Source of the DNA: a virus
Reading direction: 5' to 3' (one strand)
DNA: 41,457 bases
Virus record (IMG/VR): IMGVR_UViG_3300045988_094226
Span: 1-41,457 of that record
The position numbers were made by a program, and so were the translations under genes. Positions 5,876 through 14,574 of this stretch are shown one piece after another (positions within the stretch are counted from its first letter, which is position 1; each line of letters opens with the position of its first letter). Below the pieces are notes generated by a model that saw only the letters and a program-made list of their open reading frames with translations, was not told the DNA's origin and searched no databases.

Positions 5876-6532
5876 ATGAAAAGGTTCTTGGCTGGTGTGT
5901 TTGTAATATCTGTTATTCTTTTATCCGGATGTGGGGGTGCAGGTAACAGCAGTAATAAAAACAGTAAATCTGTCACTTATTCCACAGAACAGAAATTTGC
6001 AGCGAACACCGAAATCTTGAATATTCTTCCTACAATGAGAAAAACCCATGATGATGTTGACAAAATGGACATATATACCAGTTTGGCAACTGAATCATAC
6101 CCTCCCCAAGATGGTCTATATTGGAAATTAATTGTAAATAAAGGCTATGTCTTCGAATATTTTACAATCGTTAATTTTACAAGTGGTATTGAATGGGTAT
6201 TTTGGGATGATGTCGTTTTTTCCACAAATGAAGGGAATTGGACATATCACATCGGGTCTTTTGCCGGACAGTCAGGAAATGGGAAACGCACTCAAATAGT
6301 TATGGGCGGTAAGTATGAATTTTTAAATGTCTCTATTGATAAAATTGCTCCAGGCTTGGAAAAATTGATAAAAGGAACTAACCCGATTATTCGTTTAAGA
6401 GGTAAGGAATTTGTTTATGACATTAAACTCACGGATAATGATATGAATATAATAAATACTGCTATGTATACCTATGAACAATTAAAAATTACAGGAAACA
6501 AGATTTCTTTTGATAATACTGAAAAGAATTAA
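5876..6532 (+). CDS. Lipoprotein (candidate superinfection-exclusion protein)
   Basis: Signal peptide with lipobox LLSGC. Sits in the lysogeny module between ImmA and int. Confidence 0.55.
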   Translation: MKRFLAGVFVISVILLSGCGGAGNSSNKNSKSVTYSTEQKFAANTEILNILPTMRKTHDDVDKMDIYTSLATESYPPQDGLYWKLIVNKGYVFEYFTIVNFTSGIEWVFWDDVVFSTNEGNWTYHIGSFAGQSGNGKRTQIVMGGKYEFLNVSIDKIAPGLEKLIKGTNPIIRLRGKEFVYDIKLTDNDMNIINTAMYTYEQLKITGNKISFDNTEKN

Positions 6533-8884: not shown

Positions 8885-9607
8885 TTATATTGCATCTAAT
8901 AAACGACGGTGAGCAACTTCTATATTCCCTGGATCTTTCTCTATCCCAATGTATTTTCTATTACAATGTTTAGCCGCGACTAGTGTCGTTCCGCTCCCGG
9001 CAAATGGGTCTAATATCAGGCTTCCATCTGGTACTATTTTTACTAATTGCTCCATCAGCGGTGTCGGTTTACCTGTTAAATGGAATTTATCTGTTAATTT
9101 TACAGGGAAATGATAACATCCGGGATATGGGCCATCGTGAATAGCTTTGTGACATTTCCCTTTTGTTCCCCATGCTATATATTCACATTGGTGACGAAAA
9201 TATCCCTTGTGTGGTGCCCTCGCGCTATTACCTTTATCCCATGAAATAATTCCCCGCCATATTAACTCGCCGATTTGTAATACATCAGTTGCTGCAGGAA
9301 GCTGCCGCCAGTCCGTAAACATCAAGAAGTATCCGTTCGGTTTTAAAATTCTTTGACATTCGGATATCCATAAATTACACCAATGCATCCAACTTCGCTG
9401 ATCTTTTGTGTCACCCCAGAATGTCGGTCGATGAATTATTTTATTTCCGCTTTGCTCATATTTTTTTACTGGATCTTTTTGTCGCTCCGCCATTGTTGCA
9501 CCGCCGGAACTGTACGGCGGATCTGTAATCACCGCGTCCACTGAACAATCATCAAATGTTTTTAATATTGGTAAGCAATCTCCGCAGTATATTTTGTTGA
9601 TTTCCAT
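8885..9607 (-). CDS. N6-adenine/N4-cytosine DNA methyltransferase (beta class)
   Basis: DPPY catalytic motif (ITDPPYSSGG) before the C-terminal FAGSGTT AdoMet motif. Start trimmed to MEINKIY with RBS GGAGGG. Confidence 0.8.
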   Translation of the reverse strand: MEINKIYCGDCLPILKTFDDCSVDAVITDPPYSSGGATMAERQKDPVKKYEQSGNKIIHRPTFWGDTKDQRSWMHWCNLWISECQRILKPNGYFLMFTDWRQLPAATDVLQIGELIWRGIISWDKGNSARAPHKGYFRHQCEYIAWGTKGKCHKAIHDGPYPGCYHFPVKLTDKFHLTGKPTPLMEQLVKIVPDGSLILDPFAGSGTTLVAAKHCNRKYIGIEKDPGNIEVAHRRLLDAI

Positions 9608-9675
9608 TGTATCCCTCCTTATTTTTATTGTAGAACTAACGTTCTGTTTTCGCAATAAAAACTTAGAGTACATAC

Positions 9676-9712
9676 TCCCGAAATTTAAAAAGAGCGATAT
9701 CATTATCGCTCT
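9676..9712 (-). terminator. Intrinsic terminator after the 256-aa gene
   Basis: 9-bp stem AGAGCGATA/TATCGCTCT followed by T5 on the minus strand. Confidence 0.5.
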
Positions 9713-9718
9713 TTTGTT

Positions 9719-10489
9719 TTATAGCTCACTTCTTTTTATAGAACGTGTGCTGCAGCCGATCGCTCCAACGATATCTTTTGTTACAGATAATTTATATTTT
9801 ACTTCCGCATAATCGTCAATGTCTTCATAATATTTCACCACGAAGATTTCATTTCCATTCTGCTTTGCGCTTTTTGCATTTTTAATAGATTTTACAAAGT
9901 ATTCTGCGTAGTCGTCTAAACCTTTAAACCTCCCGTTATTTTCTTCTACAGTCCAGTCTGTACCTTCTCCGTTTACTGTGATATCCCCCATGTCGATTTC
10001 TTCGACTTGCACATGAATCCTGTCAGAAGTCTTGTATATGCTAATTCTGACTAATCCGTATGTTTCTATTTCTTTTAAATCATTTAGATCGTTTCCGCTG
10101 CCGATAAGAACAGTTTCACCGATCATCGATTTCTTTACTGGATAATTAGCGGGCGGTTCGGTGCTCACATAAACCTTGAATCTTGTTCTAAATCTATCAT
10201 CGACAAGCTCCACCCTTTCATTCAATCCGGGTTTCAATGCGGTAGCGACGGCGATCACTCCGTTCGGGCTCCCCTCGATATTGAACAAAATACCTTTTTT
10301 AACGTCTTGCATTCCATACAATTTAAACATTTTATTCCTCCTTGACTCATTTAAAACTTTTTTGACTTTTAATAATTCCTCATCGGTCATATTAATAGAT
10401 CGGCTTCGGGCACCCGGCGGCAGTGTTCTTTTAGCGCCGGACCCTTTACGACGCCCGCCCCAGCCTGTTTTATTTTCTTTCATCCTCAT
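9719..10489 (-). CDS. Hypothetical protein with a basic N-terminus GWGGRRKGSGAKR (possible DNA-binding moron)
   Basis: ORF track. ATGA coupling to the upstream gene. Confidence 0.4.
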   Translation of the reverse strand: MRMKENKTGWGGRRKGSGAKRTLPPGARSRSINMTDEELLKVKKVLNESRRNKMFKLYGMQDVKKGILFNIEGSPNGVIAVATALKPGLNERVELVDDRFRTRFKVYVSTEPPANYPVKKSMIGETVLIGSGNDLNDLKEIETYGLVRISIYKTSDRIHVQVEEIDMGDITVNGEGTDWTVEENNGRFKGLDDYAEYFVKSIKNAKSAKQNGNEIFVVKYYEDIDDYAEVKYKLSVTKDIVGAIGCSTRSIKRSEL

Positions 10490-10818
10490 TCTCCTTTTTT
10501 GTTTTCAGTATATTCCTCAAGCAGATATTTATACTGTCTTATGCTGTCTTCGAGGTCGGTATTTCCGCACTGTTCTTTCATATCTTCAATGGCGTCTTGA
10601 TCATCAATTTCTTCTTCCATTTCATCGCAGCGTTCTTGCATCGCAATGAGGTTTTTCCACCAGTTATACTCATCTTCCCTCATTTCATAGGCGTCAACCT
10701 CATCATTGTACGCCGGCATCGGGCCGAATCCTACCAAGTCTTCTGTGATGTCAAGTCCGTTTTTTCGATAATTGAGATCCTTAATTTCGTTATTTCTGTC
10801 CGTAATTGCAATTTTCAT
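10486..10818 (-). CDS. Highly acidic small protein (110 aa, about one third Asp/Glu). Candidate DNA-mimic anti-restriction protein
   Basis: Composition read from the translation. Located in the att-proximal moron region next to an orphan MTase. Confidence 0.35.
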   Translation of the reverse strand: MKIAITDRNNEIKDLNYRKNGLDITEDLVGFGPMPAYNDEVDAYEMREDEYNWWKNLIAMQERCDEMEEEIDDQDAIEDMKEQCGNTDLEDSIRQYKYLLEEYTENKKGE

Positions 10819-10835: not shown

Positions 10836-11036
10836 TTAGTACAAATCGTCTGTTGTCATGTTCCACAAATCCGTATCTGTGGTTTCTTCGTCGGCATTTA
10901 CTATGCCGCAGCGGGTGTATCTGTTCCCGCTTAACTCGTACATCTCATATCCTTGGTCTACTCTTTCAAATTTTATTGTCCGGTTTCCGTCCGTTAAAAT
11001 TCTTCCGCCTTCTTCGATTCCGATGTTTCTAATCAT
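10836..11036 (-). CDS. Hypothetical protein
   Basis: ORF track, 66 aa. Confidence 0.3.
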   Translation of the reverse strand: MIRNIGIEEGGRILTDGNRTIKFERVDQGYEMYELSGNRYTRCGIVNADEETTDTDLWNMTTDDLY

Positions 11037-11283
11037 TTTGTTTTCCTCCTTAGTGGTTTTAAATAATCTGTGGGGGTGTTCCCCTTTCTTGATTATATAT
11101 TATAATATCATGTTTGATTTGTCAATATCTTTTCAAGTGTTTTGTTATAATTATTTTTTATATCATGCAACAGAAAAAGAACAAGGATTTCTCCCTGCTC
11201 CTTTTCCTTTTTCAGATTATTTAAACCCACAGAGGTTTCCCTCTGACGTCTATATAATACCACTATAAATTAATTCACGCAAT

Positions 11284-11310
11284 AAAAAAAGAGGGCGGTT
11301 TCCCGCCCCG
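11284..11310 (-). terminator. Strong intrinsic terminator ending the lysis cassette
   Basis: GGGCGG-GAAA-CCGCCC followed by T7 on the minus strand. Confidence 0.65.
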
Positions 11311-11796
11311 TTAATTACTTAATCTGTCTACCAGCCAGCCTGTTGCCACTGCTCCTGCGATGTATGACCAGAGGTTTCTTTGCCGCTTAGCAATTTTCAA
11401 ATCATGTGTTAATTCATCAATTTTCTTCGTCAATTTGTCTAAAGATGTCTGCAGCTTCAGCAAGTTCTCTTCTGCTGTCTTTAATGATATCTCTGCACTC
11501 TGCAATTGTTCTTGCGTTCTCATCAATTCTTTTCTGCACTCTGTCAGCTGATTCTGTAGCTCGGTCAACTCTTGAGATGCTTCGGTCGAGTTGCTCTCCA
11601 GCTGATTTAATTTGCTTTCCAGCTGATCTAACCGCATCTGCTGATTGCTTGCTGTACTCTTGAGTATCTCGTACTGCGTCCTTTGCATCGTTACCGTTTC
11701 GGCTGGTGCCTGTGCATACGAGATATATGAACAAGGCGACAACCACAGCGACAGCAAGACCGCCGATAAAATAGGCCCTTTTTTGATTTTCCACAT
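11311..11796 (-). CDS. Secreted or membrane coiled-coil protein (signal peptide, long heptad coiled coil, C-terminal hydrophobic segment)
   Basis: ATG with GGAGG RBS (5-nt spacer). KIKKGPILSAVLLSLWLSPCSYISYAQA signal-like N-terminus. Confidence 0.45.
   Translation of the reverse strand: MWKIKKGPILSAVLLSLWLSPCSYISYAQAPAETVTMQRTQYEILKSTASNQQMRLDQLESKLNQLESNSTEASQELTELQNQLTECRKELMRTQEQLQSAEISLKTAEENLLKLQTSLDKLTKKIDELTHDLKIAKRQRNLWSYIAGAVATGWLVDRLSN
11417..11794 (-). CDS. Alternative-frame ORF fully embedded in the previous one. Type II membrane-anchor plus coiled-coil protein (i-spanin-like topology), possibly a real overlapping gene
   Basis: GTG start 2 nt after the ATG of the other frame, sharing the same RBS. 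N-terminal TM YFIGGLAVAVVVALFIYLVC, then an Ala/Arg/Asp-rich coiled coil. 125 codons open in a second frame. Confidence 0.25.
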   Translation of the reverse strand: MENQKRAYFIGGLAVAVVVALFIYLVCTGTSRNGNDAKDAVRDTQEYSKQSADAVRSAGKQIKSAGEQLDRSISRVDRATESADRVQKRIDENARTIAECRDIIKDSRRELAEAADIFRQIDEEN

Positions 11797-12366
11797 TTAT
11801 ACCTCCAAGCTCATTACATATTCATAAGTAGCAGTGGCTCTATTTGCGTAACCCTCTGCGTATTCTTCACAGCATGCTGCGTAGGCATACTGTTCCATGA
11901 AAAGTTCATAAATTACATTGATGTCCCGCAGGTCATATCCTCTTTCTTGTCTTCGCATTAAGAAGTTTCTTACCACTGTTTCAGATGTCGGGCACCACAT
12001 ACCTGCGTAGATTGTGCATTTTGTGTTATCAAGATCCGGGACTTCCCAGAGTGTTTCTACATAGTCTTCACAGTCTTCAGCAAGCATATCGAGCTGTGCT
12101 TGCTGTCCTTCATCACTCATCAAGAGTTCTTTTAGCGCCCAGAGATCGCCGGAACATCTCAAATCAGAGTAACTGCGGTAAGCATAATGCGCTCCGCCGG
12201 AAATGTTTTCTAATAACCTGTTCGCCCTTTCTCCTTCCCATTGGCTTACGCCAATTGATGGATAGTCTCCAGCGGTGGAACAAGAGACGGAACCGTAGTC
12301 CCCTTCAATCCCTGTCTCAATTATTCCTTTCGCTATCGCTATTGCCAGTTCTTCTTTCGTCATTTT
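11797..12366 (-). CDS. Putative endolysin, lysozyme-like/SLT-type transglycosylase
   Basis: AIAIAKGIIETG...GDYPSIGVSQWEG resembles the SLT catalytic E-S/T and GLMQ-like motif. Position after the holin. Start trimmed to MTKEEL (RBS AGGAG). Confidence 0.4.
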   Translation of the reverse strand, partial: KMTKEELAIAIAKGIIETGIEGDYGSVSCSTAGDYPSIGVSQWEGERANRLLENISGGAHYAYRSYSDLRCSGDLWALKELLMSDEGQQAQLDMLAEDCEDYVETLWEVPDLDNTKCTIYAGMWCPTSETVVRNFLMRRQERGYDLRDINVIYELFMEQYAYAACCEEYAEGYANRATATYEYVMSLEV

Positions 12367-12694
12367 TTTCTCCTTTCGCAAAAAAGAACGGTGGTTTCCC
12401 ATCGTCCTTTTCGAAAACATCCGGTATTTTATTGTTGTCTTTGTCCACAAACATCTTCCCGATTCCGACTATGCCACCGACTGCCCCCGCAGATAAAAGC
12501 ATTGTGATGAAAAGTCTTAGTTCTGGCTCATTTCCTTTTCCCGTGATCAGCCAGTCGGCTATTGTCATAAGGATATAAAGAAGAATACAGAAAATGCAGA
12601 TAACCGCATAGAGTATCGCCCAGTATAACAGTGGTGCGTTTAATTTTCTGAAGTAGCTTTTTGCTTTTCTCCAGAGTGATTTTAATTTTTTCAT
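12317..12694 (-). CDS. Holin (2-3 TM helices, charged C-terminus)
   Basis: Hydrophobic segments LLYWAILYAVICIFCILLYILMTIADWLI and ITMLLSAGAVGGIVGIG. Lysis-cassette position. Confidence 0.55.
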   Translation of the reverse strand: MKKLKSLWRKAKSYFRKLNAPLLYWAILYAVICIFCILLYILMTIADWLITGKGNEPELRLFITMLLSAGAVGGIVGIGKMFVDKDNNKIPDVFEKDDGKPPFFFAKGEKNDERRTGNSDSERNN

Positions 12695-12695
12695 A

Positions 12696-12941
12696 TCACA
12701 CCGCCCTTCCGATTAATGCAATGACCACCGAAATAATAGTTGAGATCAAGCCAGCCACTTTATAGATGTTGTCAATTCTGTTGTGAGCCGATGCTGCGTT
12801 TTGTTCCGAGCGCGCCTGTGCAATTTGCAGTGCTGTAATTTCCGGGAGCATTTTAACAAGCATATCAAGTTTTTCTTCCATTTTTGCCATCCGTTCCACA
12901 AATTGCATTGTTATTTTTTCGCCTTCATTTCTTTCCATCAT
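12696..12941 (-). CDS. XhlA-like phage haemolysin/lysis-associated membrane protein
   Basis: 81 aa with an N-terminal coiled coil and a C-terminal TM helix (VAGLISTIISVVIALIG), as in PBSX XhlA. Confidence 0.5.
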   Translation of the reverse strand: MMERNEGEKITMQFVERMAKMEEKLDMLVKMLPEITALQIAQARSEQNAASAHNRIDNIYKVAGLISTIISVVIALIGRAV

Positions 12942-12952
12942 GCACCGCCTCC

Positions 12953-13513
12953 TTATTCATTCGTAAAATCAGAAATAAACTCAAACATACAACTCCCTGT
13001 TTTCAGCATGGAGTTCGGATACATTCCGATTTTACCGTCAGCCGTATACATGCGTGATAAATTGACAAAACCGCCAGAGAGCTCTACATACGCGCCGTAT
13101 CCTTTTTCTTCTTTCGTCAGCACATCGCAGTACATCATCGGATACGTAAGTAATTCATGCTTAACGAATTTAGATTGCAGGTATTTATCAAAGTAAGCCG
13201 TGGCAATGCCGATCGAATTATTGTAAAAATTCAGCCATCTAAACTCTGTTGTATTAGTACCTGTATCAATGCACGAGCATTGCACGGTAAACTTTACACG
13301 CCGATATCCTTCTTCTGTATAACCTACGATTTCGGCAACAACGGTACCGATATGCTGCGTCACAAATCCGATATCCCCTAAAAATTTCTTATTTACGATT
13401 CCGGTTGCTCTGGCTTTCATTCTTTTGTCTACTATTCTGAATTTCGCGCTTCCATCTGTTATTTCCCGCATTTTGTTTACTCCTTTCAATCGTTTGTTAA
13501 ATATACTAAACAC
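12953..13513 (-). CDS. Hypothetical structural protein
   Basis: ORF track, 186 aa. Confidence 0.35.
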   Translation of the reverse strand: MFSIFNKRLKGVNKMREITDGSAKFRIVDKRMKARATGIVNKKFLGDIGFVTQHIGTVVAEIVGYTEEGYRRVKFTVQCSCIDTGTNTTEFRWLNFYNNSIGIATAYFDKYLQSKFVKHELLTYPMMYCDVLTKEEKGYGAYVELSGGFVNLSRMYTADGKIGMYPNSMLKTGSCMFEFISDFTNE

Positions 13514-14574
13514 GCAACAGATTCATGTCCTGGCGATGTAGTATATTCATCCGTATAACTGAGATATAGTTTACCATCTGTATTTATTGTCAATCGTACA
13601 GCTTTACCGTTGCTGTTGTTTATAGGGGCATAAAATTCAAGATTTATAAATGATTCTGGTAGCCCCGATGCAATTTCAATGAGACCTTCCTTTGCACCTT
13701 TCATTCGTACAAAAAGATGCACTATGTTTTTTATTTTTACACATGATAAATTTTCGATATATTGTGGGTCTATAGTCGCATTAATTGTTTCCATCTGTCC
13801 GTAATTATCAAATTTTTCATCAACATATTCTTTTGCAGTTACAGTTTTAACTGTCCACTTCACGCTTCCGTCATTAACTTCTACCCCCCCCGATACGGTT
13901 GACATATTAGGTTCGGTGGCTGCTGTTGTGCCTGCTTGCGTGCATTCAAGATATGCCCATGATGGTAGTTTAGATGAATAGACAATATCGCCGACTTTAT
14001 ATGCTTTCTTGCGTTGCAGTCGATTAACAAACGACGCCGTGGATTCTAAGTCCGTCTGCTCCGCCTTTTTGTCTACTTTTGTTGATACCGCCGCTAAATC
14101 TGTTTGATTCGCTTTCTTTCCAATTTGATTAGAGACCGTTGTTGCGAAATTCGGGTCATTACCAAGCGCGGTTGCCAGTTCATTAAGCGTATCAAGAGTT
14201 TCCGGTGCGGCTCCGACAAGTCCAGATACTGTGTTTTGCACAAACTCTGTATTTGCGATTGTTTTAGAATTGTCACCTGTCGGTGCTGTTGGTGCTGCAC
14301 TCGTACCCGTTACCGCTAATGACTTTGCTTTGACCGTATCAGCATTGACTAAATTAAGGTCACTCGTACCCGTTACCGCTAATGACTTTGCTTTGAAATC
14401 TTTATCATCTGCCGCGCCTTGTTTGTATAGATATTCGATATCGTTCGCGAAATAATCGAATATGCCATCGTTCCCTTTTGTACAGAACGGTGTATTTTTC
14501 CCGAATGCTCCGGGCTGTATGATGTTGTCGTTTTCATCTCTTATTTCCGGATGTTGAAATGTCTGCGGTTTCAT
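13486..14574 (-). CDS. Tail fibre protein with an internal tandem repeat
   Basis: TIANTEFVQNTV phage tail-fibre repeat motif. Duplicated KAKSLAVTGTS segments are encoded by a 36-nt repeat at 14299-14334 and 14353-14388. Confidence 0.6.
   Translation of the reverse strand: MKPQTFQHPEIRDENDNIIQPGAFGKNTPFCTKGNDGIFDYFANDIEYLYKQGAADDKDFKAKSLAVTGTSDLNLVNADTVKAKSLAVTGTSAAPTAPTGDNSKTIANTEFVQNTVSGLVGAAPETLDTLNELATALGNDPNFATTVSNQIGKKANQTDLAAVSTKVDKKAEQTDLESTASFVNRLQRKKAYKVGDIVYSSKLPSWAYLECTQAGTTAATEPNMSTVSGGVEVNDGSVKWTVKTVTAKEYVDEKFDNYGQMETINATIDPQYIENLSCVKIKNIVHLFVRMKGAKEGLIEIASGLPESFINLEFYAPINNSNGKAVRLTINTDGKLYLSYTDEYTTSPGHESVACLVYLTND

Follow-up and report, generated by a model that had tools for sequence, protein, structure and literature searches.

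Spanins are defined by a lipoprotein that the Lol system sorts to the outer membrane. In the Rz/Rz1 pair of phage lambda and in embedded spanins generally, two proteins are encoded out of frame in shared DNA; the gene concerned comes last in the lysis cassette, after the endolysin gene, and the host possesses an outer membrane (PMC6139136). One partner, the inner-membrane spanin (i-spanin), has type II topology in the inner membrane and a helical domain in the periplasm; the other, secreted one (outer-membrane spanin, o-spanin) lies in the +1 frame relative to it, and periplasmic cysteines are often present in both. Here we describe a gene pair, A and B, that shares these features, found on the minus strand of the virus record IMGVR_UViG_3300045988_094226; all 41,457 nucleotides (nt) of this record were analysed and are called the window, coordinates are window positions, and frame A and frame B denote the two overlapping minus-strand open reading frames (ORFs). 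We estimate at roughly 55% the probability that A and B constitute a lipoprotein-free, spanin-like pair in a new, co-started architecture that would act in disruption of the outer membrane.

The departures from Rz/Rz1 are as marked as the likeness. While about 70% of embedded spanins have the o-spanin at approximately 0.4-1.0 of the i-spanin (PMC6139136), here the i-spanin-like gene is the embedded one, occupying 0 to ~0.8 of the length of its partner, and a single ribosome-binding site precedes two starts separated by only 2-4 nt. At 130-175 amino acids (aa), the secreted partner is a helical protein that has an anchor at its C-terminus and lacks a consensus lipobox; the host is without Lol, and no homology to lambda Rz is detectable.

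Catalogued spanins come mainly from phages of Proteobacteria and Bacteroidetes, and a recent survey reports them absent from Gram-positive phages, with the Negativicutes going unmentioned (PMC12596118). Negativicutes are diderm, with a lipopolysaccharide (LPS) outer membrane tethered by OmpM, and lolA-E occur in no Negativicute genome (PMC5491611). Without these genes, canonical Lol sorting of an o-spanin is not available in such a host. We also know of no Braun lipoprotein in Negativicutes. An LPS outer membrane is here combined with the lack of both Lol and Braun lipoprotein; we found no paper on how Negativicute phages finish lysis, and none linking spanins to Negativicutes, Veillonella, Dialister, Megasphaera or Selenomonas. 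The A/B pair offers a concrete, abundant and testable candidate for this last step of lysis, and is the best candidate for the means by which phages of outer-membrane-bearing Firmicutes breach the outer membrane.

The original prediction, made from the letters of this stretch, had pointed to an ATG (11796) and a GTG (11794) two nt apart behind a single GGAGG, opening two frames that both remain free of stops for at least 125 codons. Our ORF calls agree, giving proteins of 161 and 125 aa (Table 1). The TAA of the upstream gene (11799-11797) abuts the ATG of A, GC content of the region is 43.8%, and the pair is the final cistron of the late operon, which an intrinsic terminator closes. The observation, with its placement at the end of the lysis cassette, is confirmed.

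For comparison we assembled the DNA of approximately 80 related loci: 39 close to the window, 25 belonging to a subfamily with ~36% identity in A (the L039-type), 10 distant Dialister loci from genome assemblies (A identity 26-37%), a Megasphaera paucivorans prophage with one relative, and 5 loci from three further lineages. The very diverse A alignment (A4) held no conserved stretch, and loci were searched for with single representatives instead. Frame B spans 104-151 stop-free codons in all the loci examined and retains both a start codon and an N-terminal transmembrane (TM) helix, so that both frames are preserved without exception. The B stop falls at 0.78-0.85 of the length of A in the 72 tabulated loci, and at ~0.95 in the L076/L079 lineage. 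The close pairing of starts is kept as well: B begins with a GTG at +2 of the ATG of A (ATGTG) in 35 of the 72 tabulated loci and with an ATG at -4 (ATGTATG) in 36, and L064, tabulated at -19, fits the second arrangement too on our reading of the table, if the upstream ATG of A is taken as its start. Purine-rich motifs resembling GGAGG or GGGGTG precede the paired starts in most related loci. Read from the ORF translation, the start of B appears to lie ~37 nt upstream of A in the L084/L085 lineage, an arrangement that would show A and B to be separate translational units.

An open frame of this length had been thought improbable by chance in DNA of 43% GC, and the calculations bear this out. 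The naive chance of 125 stop-free codons at the base composition of the region is 0.0044. When protein A is held fixed and its synonymous codons are resampled with the codon usage of the window, B is open in 5e-4 of cases (9e-4 for the converse, in which B is kept and the frame of A must stay open), and shuffling the gene's own synonymous codons leaves B open with a probability of 0.004-0.0075. Among 15 representative lineages, B stays open in 0.0005-0.058 of synonymous-codon permutations, and in at most 0.0015 by resampling with window codon usage. These lineages approximate independent trials, since synonymous sites are saturated at 26-40% protein identity. Each gene's own codons lead one to expect 2.5-4.5 stops in the B frame, and none is seen in ~80 loci of at least 15 lineages. 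The third frame has 11 stops across the overlap and, at one sampled point, is open for just 13 codons.

The sequence encoded by frame B is conserved between genera. An ungapped alignment of the soluble part of B from the window and from the Megasphaera prophage gives 36% identity (E 1e-15), with A at 38% identity (E 1e-23). The B-frame identity of 0.35 compares with a null of 0.17 +/- 0.034 and a maximum of 0.29 in 3000 permutations of the synonymous codons of both genes, placing it about 5 standard deviations above the null; the third frame in the same comparison is 0.22 identical and carries 11-13 stops. Codon usage also marks the second frame as coding, which, like the preservation of both frames in related phages, was a point on which the earlier proposal could have failed: B scores 0.151 per codon (A, 0.090), which is within the range of true coding frames (0.235 +/- 0.10) and above 98.4% of the +2 frames of control genes (-0.064 +/- 0.096).

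Nucleotide diversity within the family shifts exactly at the B stop. In the tail that encodes A only, diversity follows the classic pattern of a coding sequence, and on entering the overlap that of the third codon position of A drops from 0.283 to 0.162, with confidence intervals that do not overlap (all positions in Table 1); the L039-type subfamily shifts in the same direction. By these values, A is constrained at its synonymous sites in the overlap and only there, and its second positions, which are the wobble positions of B, are relaxed. A-synonymous changes found in the family alter B more conservatively than those absent from it (p 0.015 for transitions, 0.034 for transversions), and no such signal came from a dummy frame placed in the A-only tail. 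Both frames are maintained by selection.

That only A is translated, and that frame B is open simply because of the codons a coiled-coil gene uses, we regard as very improbable. Such genes are rich in Q, E, K and L codons and hence have few off-frame stops, one selection test gives no signal for B, and the soluble part of B diverges fast (both results are detailed below). Against this stand the absence of any of the expected stops across the sampled lineages, the invariable presence of a B start codon and TM helix, the cross-genus identity, the coding-type codon usage, and the confinement of A's synonymous suppression to the overlap. On these comparative grounds the dual coding first proposed for this locus is almost certain, with both frames being real genes, and we infer that both are translated. 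RNA structure was considered as a cause of the synonymous constraint and rejected, the mRNA not being unusually structured (z = +0.63). Programmed frameshifting between the frames was set aside, as each frame has its own conserved start and B its own conserved TM helix.

Protein B consists of a short basic N-terminus (MENQKR), a TM helix and a charged helical domain of ~97 aa, which upholds the type II anchoring and i-spanin-like topology originally ascribed to it. AlphaFold2 (AF2) places helices at residues 4-28 and 36-124 with low confidence (predicted local distance difference test score, pLDDT, 57). The TM helix is itself unlikely to be a by-product of A: its hydrophobicity of 2.79 is reached in 0.65% of synonymous resamplings of A for the window and in 3% or less for each of the 15 lineages, and B carries such a helix in 72 of 72 tabulated loci, with a mean hydrophobicity of 2.87. 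Members of the B family give weak matches to spanins in profile searches, with 7 of 14 diverse members matching phrog_214 ('Rz-like spanin') and others matching the Rz-like spanin families phrog_89, 312 (E 4e-8), 1403, 739 and 8821. The alignments run from the TM helix through ~90 residues, with typical E values of 1e-3 to 1e-5 and a best of 4e-8. A search of deposited phage genomes with a B protein by tblastn returned non-significant matches only (E 4-5), two of the three being the Rz-like spanin of epsilon15 (one genome under two accessions). The resemblance of B to Rz spanins may be one of architecture only.

Protein A was originally described as a signal-peptide coiled-coil protein of 161 aa. 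The signal peptide and the helical domain hold, with small-x-small signal peptidase I sites conserved, and A is better described as having a signal peptide and a C-terminal anchor. In the AF2 model (pLDDT 67), a helix at residues 29-69 is followed by a hinge, NSTE (70-73), and by a second helix (74-160) that runs into the hydrophobic C-terminus. Just ahead of that segment lies the juxtamembrane motif RQRNLW, in which R138, Q139, R140, N141 and W143 are invariant columns and L142 is invariant in one alignment and nearly so in another; distant representatives retain [KR]RQR[ND]xW. Across the family, the hydrophobic C-terminal segment measures 14-17 residues and is followed by a short, mostly basic tail. 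The motif, the hydrophobic C-terminus of A and the terminator behind its stop are additions to the original prediction.

A frequent cysteine raises the question of lipid modification. It stands at the end of the signal-peptide core in 40 of 47 diverse A representatives; however, a strict lipobox is found in 1 of 47 and a PROSITE-like one in 10 of 47. The copy in the window departs from the consensus [LVI][ASTVI][GAS]C, its sequence being LSPC with proline at -1. We rejected A as a lipoprotein as a general rule, the cysteine being replaced in relatives and the lipobox rare.

The anatomy of A also bears on whether it could act alone, in the manner of a unimolecular spanin (u-spanin) that has a secretion or lipid signal at its N-terminus and a membrane anchor at the other end, B being a modulator or a dispensable by-product that is tolerated and kept open. 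The periplasmic domain of the u-spanin T1 gp11 is predicted to be rich in beta-strands, unlike the all-helical prediction for A. End to end, A has the topology of T1 gp11 (PMC6139136), with an N-terminal secretion signal, a C-terminal TM segment and a position as last gene of the lysis cassette. The frequent signal-peptide cysteine, and a purifying selection stronger on A than on B, are likewise what such a role would predict. Unlike gp11, A of the window is without a consensus lipobox, its cysteine is not conserved (the L039-type having none), and a second protein is co-encoded with it, whose ORF, start codon, TM helix and sequence are conserved beyond chance. A thus has the hydrophobic C-terminal segment of a u-spanin and not the lipobox, and it overlaps an i-spanin-like gene out of frame as an o-spanin does, with the embedding inverted (B inside A). 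We consider a function of A alone unlikely, and favour a joint action of A and B in a spanin-like pair.

The family matches of A are generic coiled-coil matches. They comprise XhlA (PF10779; residues 95-153, 28.0 bits, below the Pfam cut-off of 34.7 bits), a weak, sub-threshold hit to TIGR04211 ('SH3_and_anchor'; residues 43-153), a family that shares its layout of coiled coil and C-terminal anchor with A, and phrog_937 ('hemolysin'). Public records of A are named 'chromosome segregation ATPase', 'TolA-binding protein', 'SH3 domain protein', 'Peptidoglycan endopeptidase' or 'SECRETED 45 KDA PROTEIN'; these names are generic coiled-coil misannotations.

The window derives from a ~41-kb siphovirus or prophage of Dialister, its terminase being identical to that of Siphoviridae sp. 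ctkyE7 and falling in a cluster that includes Dialister invisus members. The A family is present in a Dialister invisus chromosome, in several Dialister genomes and in the Megasphaera paucivorans prophage. All identifiable hosts (Dialister spp. and Megasphaera paucivorans) are Veillonellaceae, and the pair is restricted to diderm Firmicute hosts, the setting in which the original prediction had envisaged a novel spanin-like pair. One locus, L069 (CAVBQN010000003.1), comes from a metagenome-assembled genome binned as Fusicatenibacter saccharivorans. This monoderm host label was rejected: the L19 and TrmL proteins that flank the prophage are identical to Dialister proteins, and the bin label is wrong.

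The family amounts to thousands of sequence clusters, mainly from public sequencing-run assemblies and metagenomes. A single-sequence search with A recovered 205 homologous clusters and a profile search 3341, with 742 representatives at 50% identity. Among 50,697 deposited phage genomes, neither blastn nor tblastn recovered anything related to the region, to A or to its Megasphaera counterpart, and no cultured phage can serve as a reference. Gene callers annotate one frame only, choosing the B frame in 121 clusters; B is usually unannotated, and the second protein is missing from almost every record.

In the window, the lysis cassette reads in order: an XhlA-like 81-aa protein, a 125-aa protein with two TM segments, a 189-aa protein, the A/B pair and the terminator. 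The 81-aa and 125-aa proteins are probably a holin module. A module of this XhlA-like and two-TM type is better known from phages of monoderm Firmicutes. The 189-aa protein occupies the endolysin slot and has no sequence match in Pfam, NCBIfam, PHROG (E<0.05) or PDB; its homologues fill the same slot in L039, L076 and L079, it carries the conserved motif GDYPSIGVSQWEG, and it may represent an unrecognised endolysin family. Its gene begins ~50 nt before the preceding membrane-protein gene ends. In other loci, the endolysin slot is filled by Amidase_2, GH25 or Glucosaminidase, so that the pair follows four endolysin types, together with Phage_holin_4_1 or small holins, and tail-fibre genes sometimes lie between.

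This promiscuity is relevant to the possibility that both frames are translated and that the pair regulates or assists the holin-endolysin step as an antiholin, a lysis timer or a holin accessory of the XhlA type. Like XhlA of Bacillus PBSX (PF10779), A is a small lysis-cassette protein in which a coiled coil precedes a C-terminal TM segment; the weak XhlA and phrog_937 'hemolysin' matches, the predicted anchoring of both proteins in the inner membrane, where holins act, and the XhlA-like 81-aa protein already present in the cassette all speak for such a role. XhlA proteins are shorter and are not known to have a signal peptide. A, by comparison, is longer and bears one, its XhlA score stays below the Pfam cut-off, and XhlA comes from monoderm hosts while the A/B family is found only in hosts with an outer membrane. 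B members match spanin and not holin families, and the pair occurs with unrelated holins (Phage_holin_4_1, XhlA-like plus two-TM, small) and with four endolysin types; a pair that accompanies whichever holin and endolysin are present behaves as spanin genes should, and not as a holin-specific regulator would. We hold a regulatory role to be improbable, though it is the foremost of the alternatives to a spanin-like pair.

The position of the pair at the operon end, next to a terminator, recalls accessory 'moron' genes, and its products, both small envelope proteins, could conceivably serve superinfection exclusion or lysogenic conversion instead of lysis. Such a non-lysis role seems quite unlikely given that the start of A abuts the stop of the preceding late gene, that a scan found no promoter-like site just upstream, that in relatives the pair directly abuts endolysin or tail-fibre genes, and that the pair is near-universal in these phages rather than sporadic.

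How a spanin-like pair of this kind might work can be outlined as follows. One late mRNA with one Shine-Dalgarno sequence would give rise to both proteins alongside holin and endolysin, the 378 bases at 11417-11794 being read in two frames from starts 2 nt apart. B would insert in the inner membrane in type II orientation, with its short basic N-terminus in the cytoplasm and ~97 helical residues in the periplasm, as the equivalent of an i-spanin. A would be exported by Sec and, freed of its cleavable signal peptide, would present one hinge within ~105 helical residues, then RQRNLW and a short hydrophobic anchor. After removal of the peptidoglycan by holin and endolysin, A and B together would form a periplasm-spanning device that disrupts the Negativicute outer membrane, A taking the place of a lipoprotein o-spanin that could not be sorted to the outer membrane without Lol. 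Three kinds of contact can be envisaged: the short, weakly hydrophobic C-terminal segment of A might act on the outer membrane instead of serving as a stop-transfer anchor; the N-terminal cysteine or N-terminal region of A might touch the outer membrane while its C-terminus sits in the inner membrane, as in a u-spanin; or the pair might bind an outer-membrane component such as OmpM. The interaction of A with B, the contact with the outer membrane and the membrane-disruption step are inferred. In its fullest form, the proposal is that Veillonellaceae phages breach the outer membrane by a two-protein spanin not described before, which needs neither a lipoprotein nor Lol and whose subunits start from a shared ribosome-binding site in two frames. 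B would be the Rz-like inner-membrane subunit; A would be a helical, SNARE-like partner exported by Sec, contacting the second membrane through its N-terminal cysteine or through its short C-terminal segment rich in Gly and Ala. This more detailed version we offer tentatively, at slightly less than an even chance.

A number of observations weigh against a spanin-like pair. Neither A nor B has a recognised route to the outer membrane, and both are predicted in the inner membrane. The cysteine of A lies outside a consensus lipobox, and becomes LSPY in close relatives and LLSGS, with no cysteine, in the L039-type. The spanin PHROG matches are weak, the window's own B reaching E values of 0.05-0.16. 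In hhalign comparisons, the B profile reaches a probability of 3% against lambda Rz, with just the TM helix aligned, and of 16% against epsilon15 Rz, and the A profile against lambda Rz gives nothing. The AF2 models of both proteins are of low confidence. Two results concern the second frame itself. Among A-nonsynonymous changes, B-synonymous ones are no commoner than B-nonsynonymous ones when transitions and transversions are stratified (0.29 vs 0.29; 0.07 vs 0.08), a comparison that is confounded since its sites are the second codon positions of A; the pooled form of this test (p 0.018) loses its signal on stratification and was not counted as support. Beyond the N-terminus, no significant similarity links the B proteins of the window and of the L039-type (E 7.5), which indicates that B evolves fast.

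Two further systems invite comparison on account of where translation starts. As in the S105/S107 holin and antiholin of lambda, starts a few bases apart share one ribosome-binding site and yield two lysis proteins, which in S are made in a fixed ratio; unlike those of S, which lie in the same frame and give near-identical proteins, the starts here lie in different frames and give unrelated sequences. Retapamulin ribosome profiling in Escherichia coli has reportedly revealed out-of-frame internal initiation sites whose products are mostly short and poorly conserved. The A/B locus would likewise involve out-of-frame translation inside a bacterial gene, but its overlap extends over 104-151 codons and is conserved across genera. 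With its starts within 4 nt of each other, the locus is an exceptionally clear example of extended out-of-frame dual coding in a bacteriophage, and lends itself to work on how start codons are chosen and on how two membrane proteins can evolve within one sequence.

Table 1. Features of the A/B locus and its neighbourhood in the window, with diversity values for the two parts of gene A
Feature	Positions	Strand	Details
Gene A	11311..11796	minus	ATG 11796 to stop 11311; 161 aa
Gene B	11417..11794	minus	GTG 11794 to stop 11417; 125 aa; +2 frame; entirely within gene A
Dual start ATGTG	11792..11796	minus	ATG is the start of A; GTG 2 nt further is the start of B
Shine-Dalgarno GGAGG	11802..11806	minus	single site, expected to serve both starts; 5 nt upstream of the ATG of A
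Signal peptide of A (MWKIKKGPILSAVLLSLWLSPCSYISYAQA)	11707..11796	minus	residues 1-30; Sec-type; co-encoded with N-terminus and TM helix of B
TM helix of B (AYFIGGLAVAVVVALFIYLV)	11717..11776	minus	residues 7-26; Kyte-Doolittle mean 2.79 over 17 aa
RQRNLW juxtamembrane motif of A	11368..11385	minus	just downstream of B stop; invariant across Dialister subfamilies
C-terminal hydrophobic segment of A (LWSYIAGAVATGWLV)	11329..11373	minus	residues 142-156; 15 aa, Gly/Ala-rich, moderately hydrophobic, then DRLSN
Intrinsic terminator (GGGGCGGGAAACCGCCCT then T run)	11282..11309 (terminator scan: 11309-11292)	minus	directly after A stop
189-aa protein in endolysin slot	11797..12366	minus	stop abuts A start
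125-aa two-TM protein	12317-12694	minus	follows 81-aa XhlA-like gene
81-aa XhlA-like protein	12696-12941	minus	PF10779 E 4.8e-4; phrog_689 'holin' E 0.0027
Overlap			diversity at A codon positions 1/2/3: 0.075/0.107/0.162
A-only tail			diversity at A codon positions 1/2/3: 0.083/0.029/0.283 (classic coding pattern)

Some minor features of the window and of related loci complete the picture. Cassettes of the Megasphaera type (L074:923-1270, L075:3133-3489) encode, between the GH25 endolysin and the A/B pair, an extra protein of 115-118 aa with an acidic helical domain and a hydrophobic C-terminal tail (...IGIGAIIYRLFFF). Within the window, no other o-spanin or u-spanin candidate was found. Its sole consensus lipoprotein ORF (218 aa, 5876-6532, plus strand; signal MKRFLAGVFVISVILLSGC...) lies in an opposite-strand block outside the lysis cassette, and is possibly a lysogenic-conversion or exclusion lipoprotein. 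Rfam and tRNA scans of the window returned nothing. Tail-fibre modules are shuffled: the ORFs at 13486-14574 and 12953-13513 (both on the minus strand, region 12953-14574) are separate in the window, while at L039:1705-2844 the second directly continues the N-terminal part of the first, whose C-terminal domain is absent. Downstream of the late operon, three small ORFs without an assigned identity (10836-11036, 10486-10818 and 9719-10489) are followed by an ORF at 8885-9703 (minus strand) that resembles a DNA methyltransferase and has a DPPY motif.

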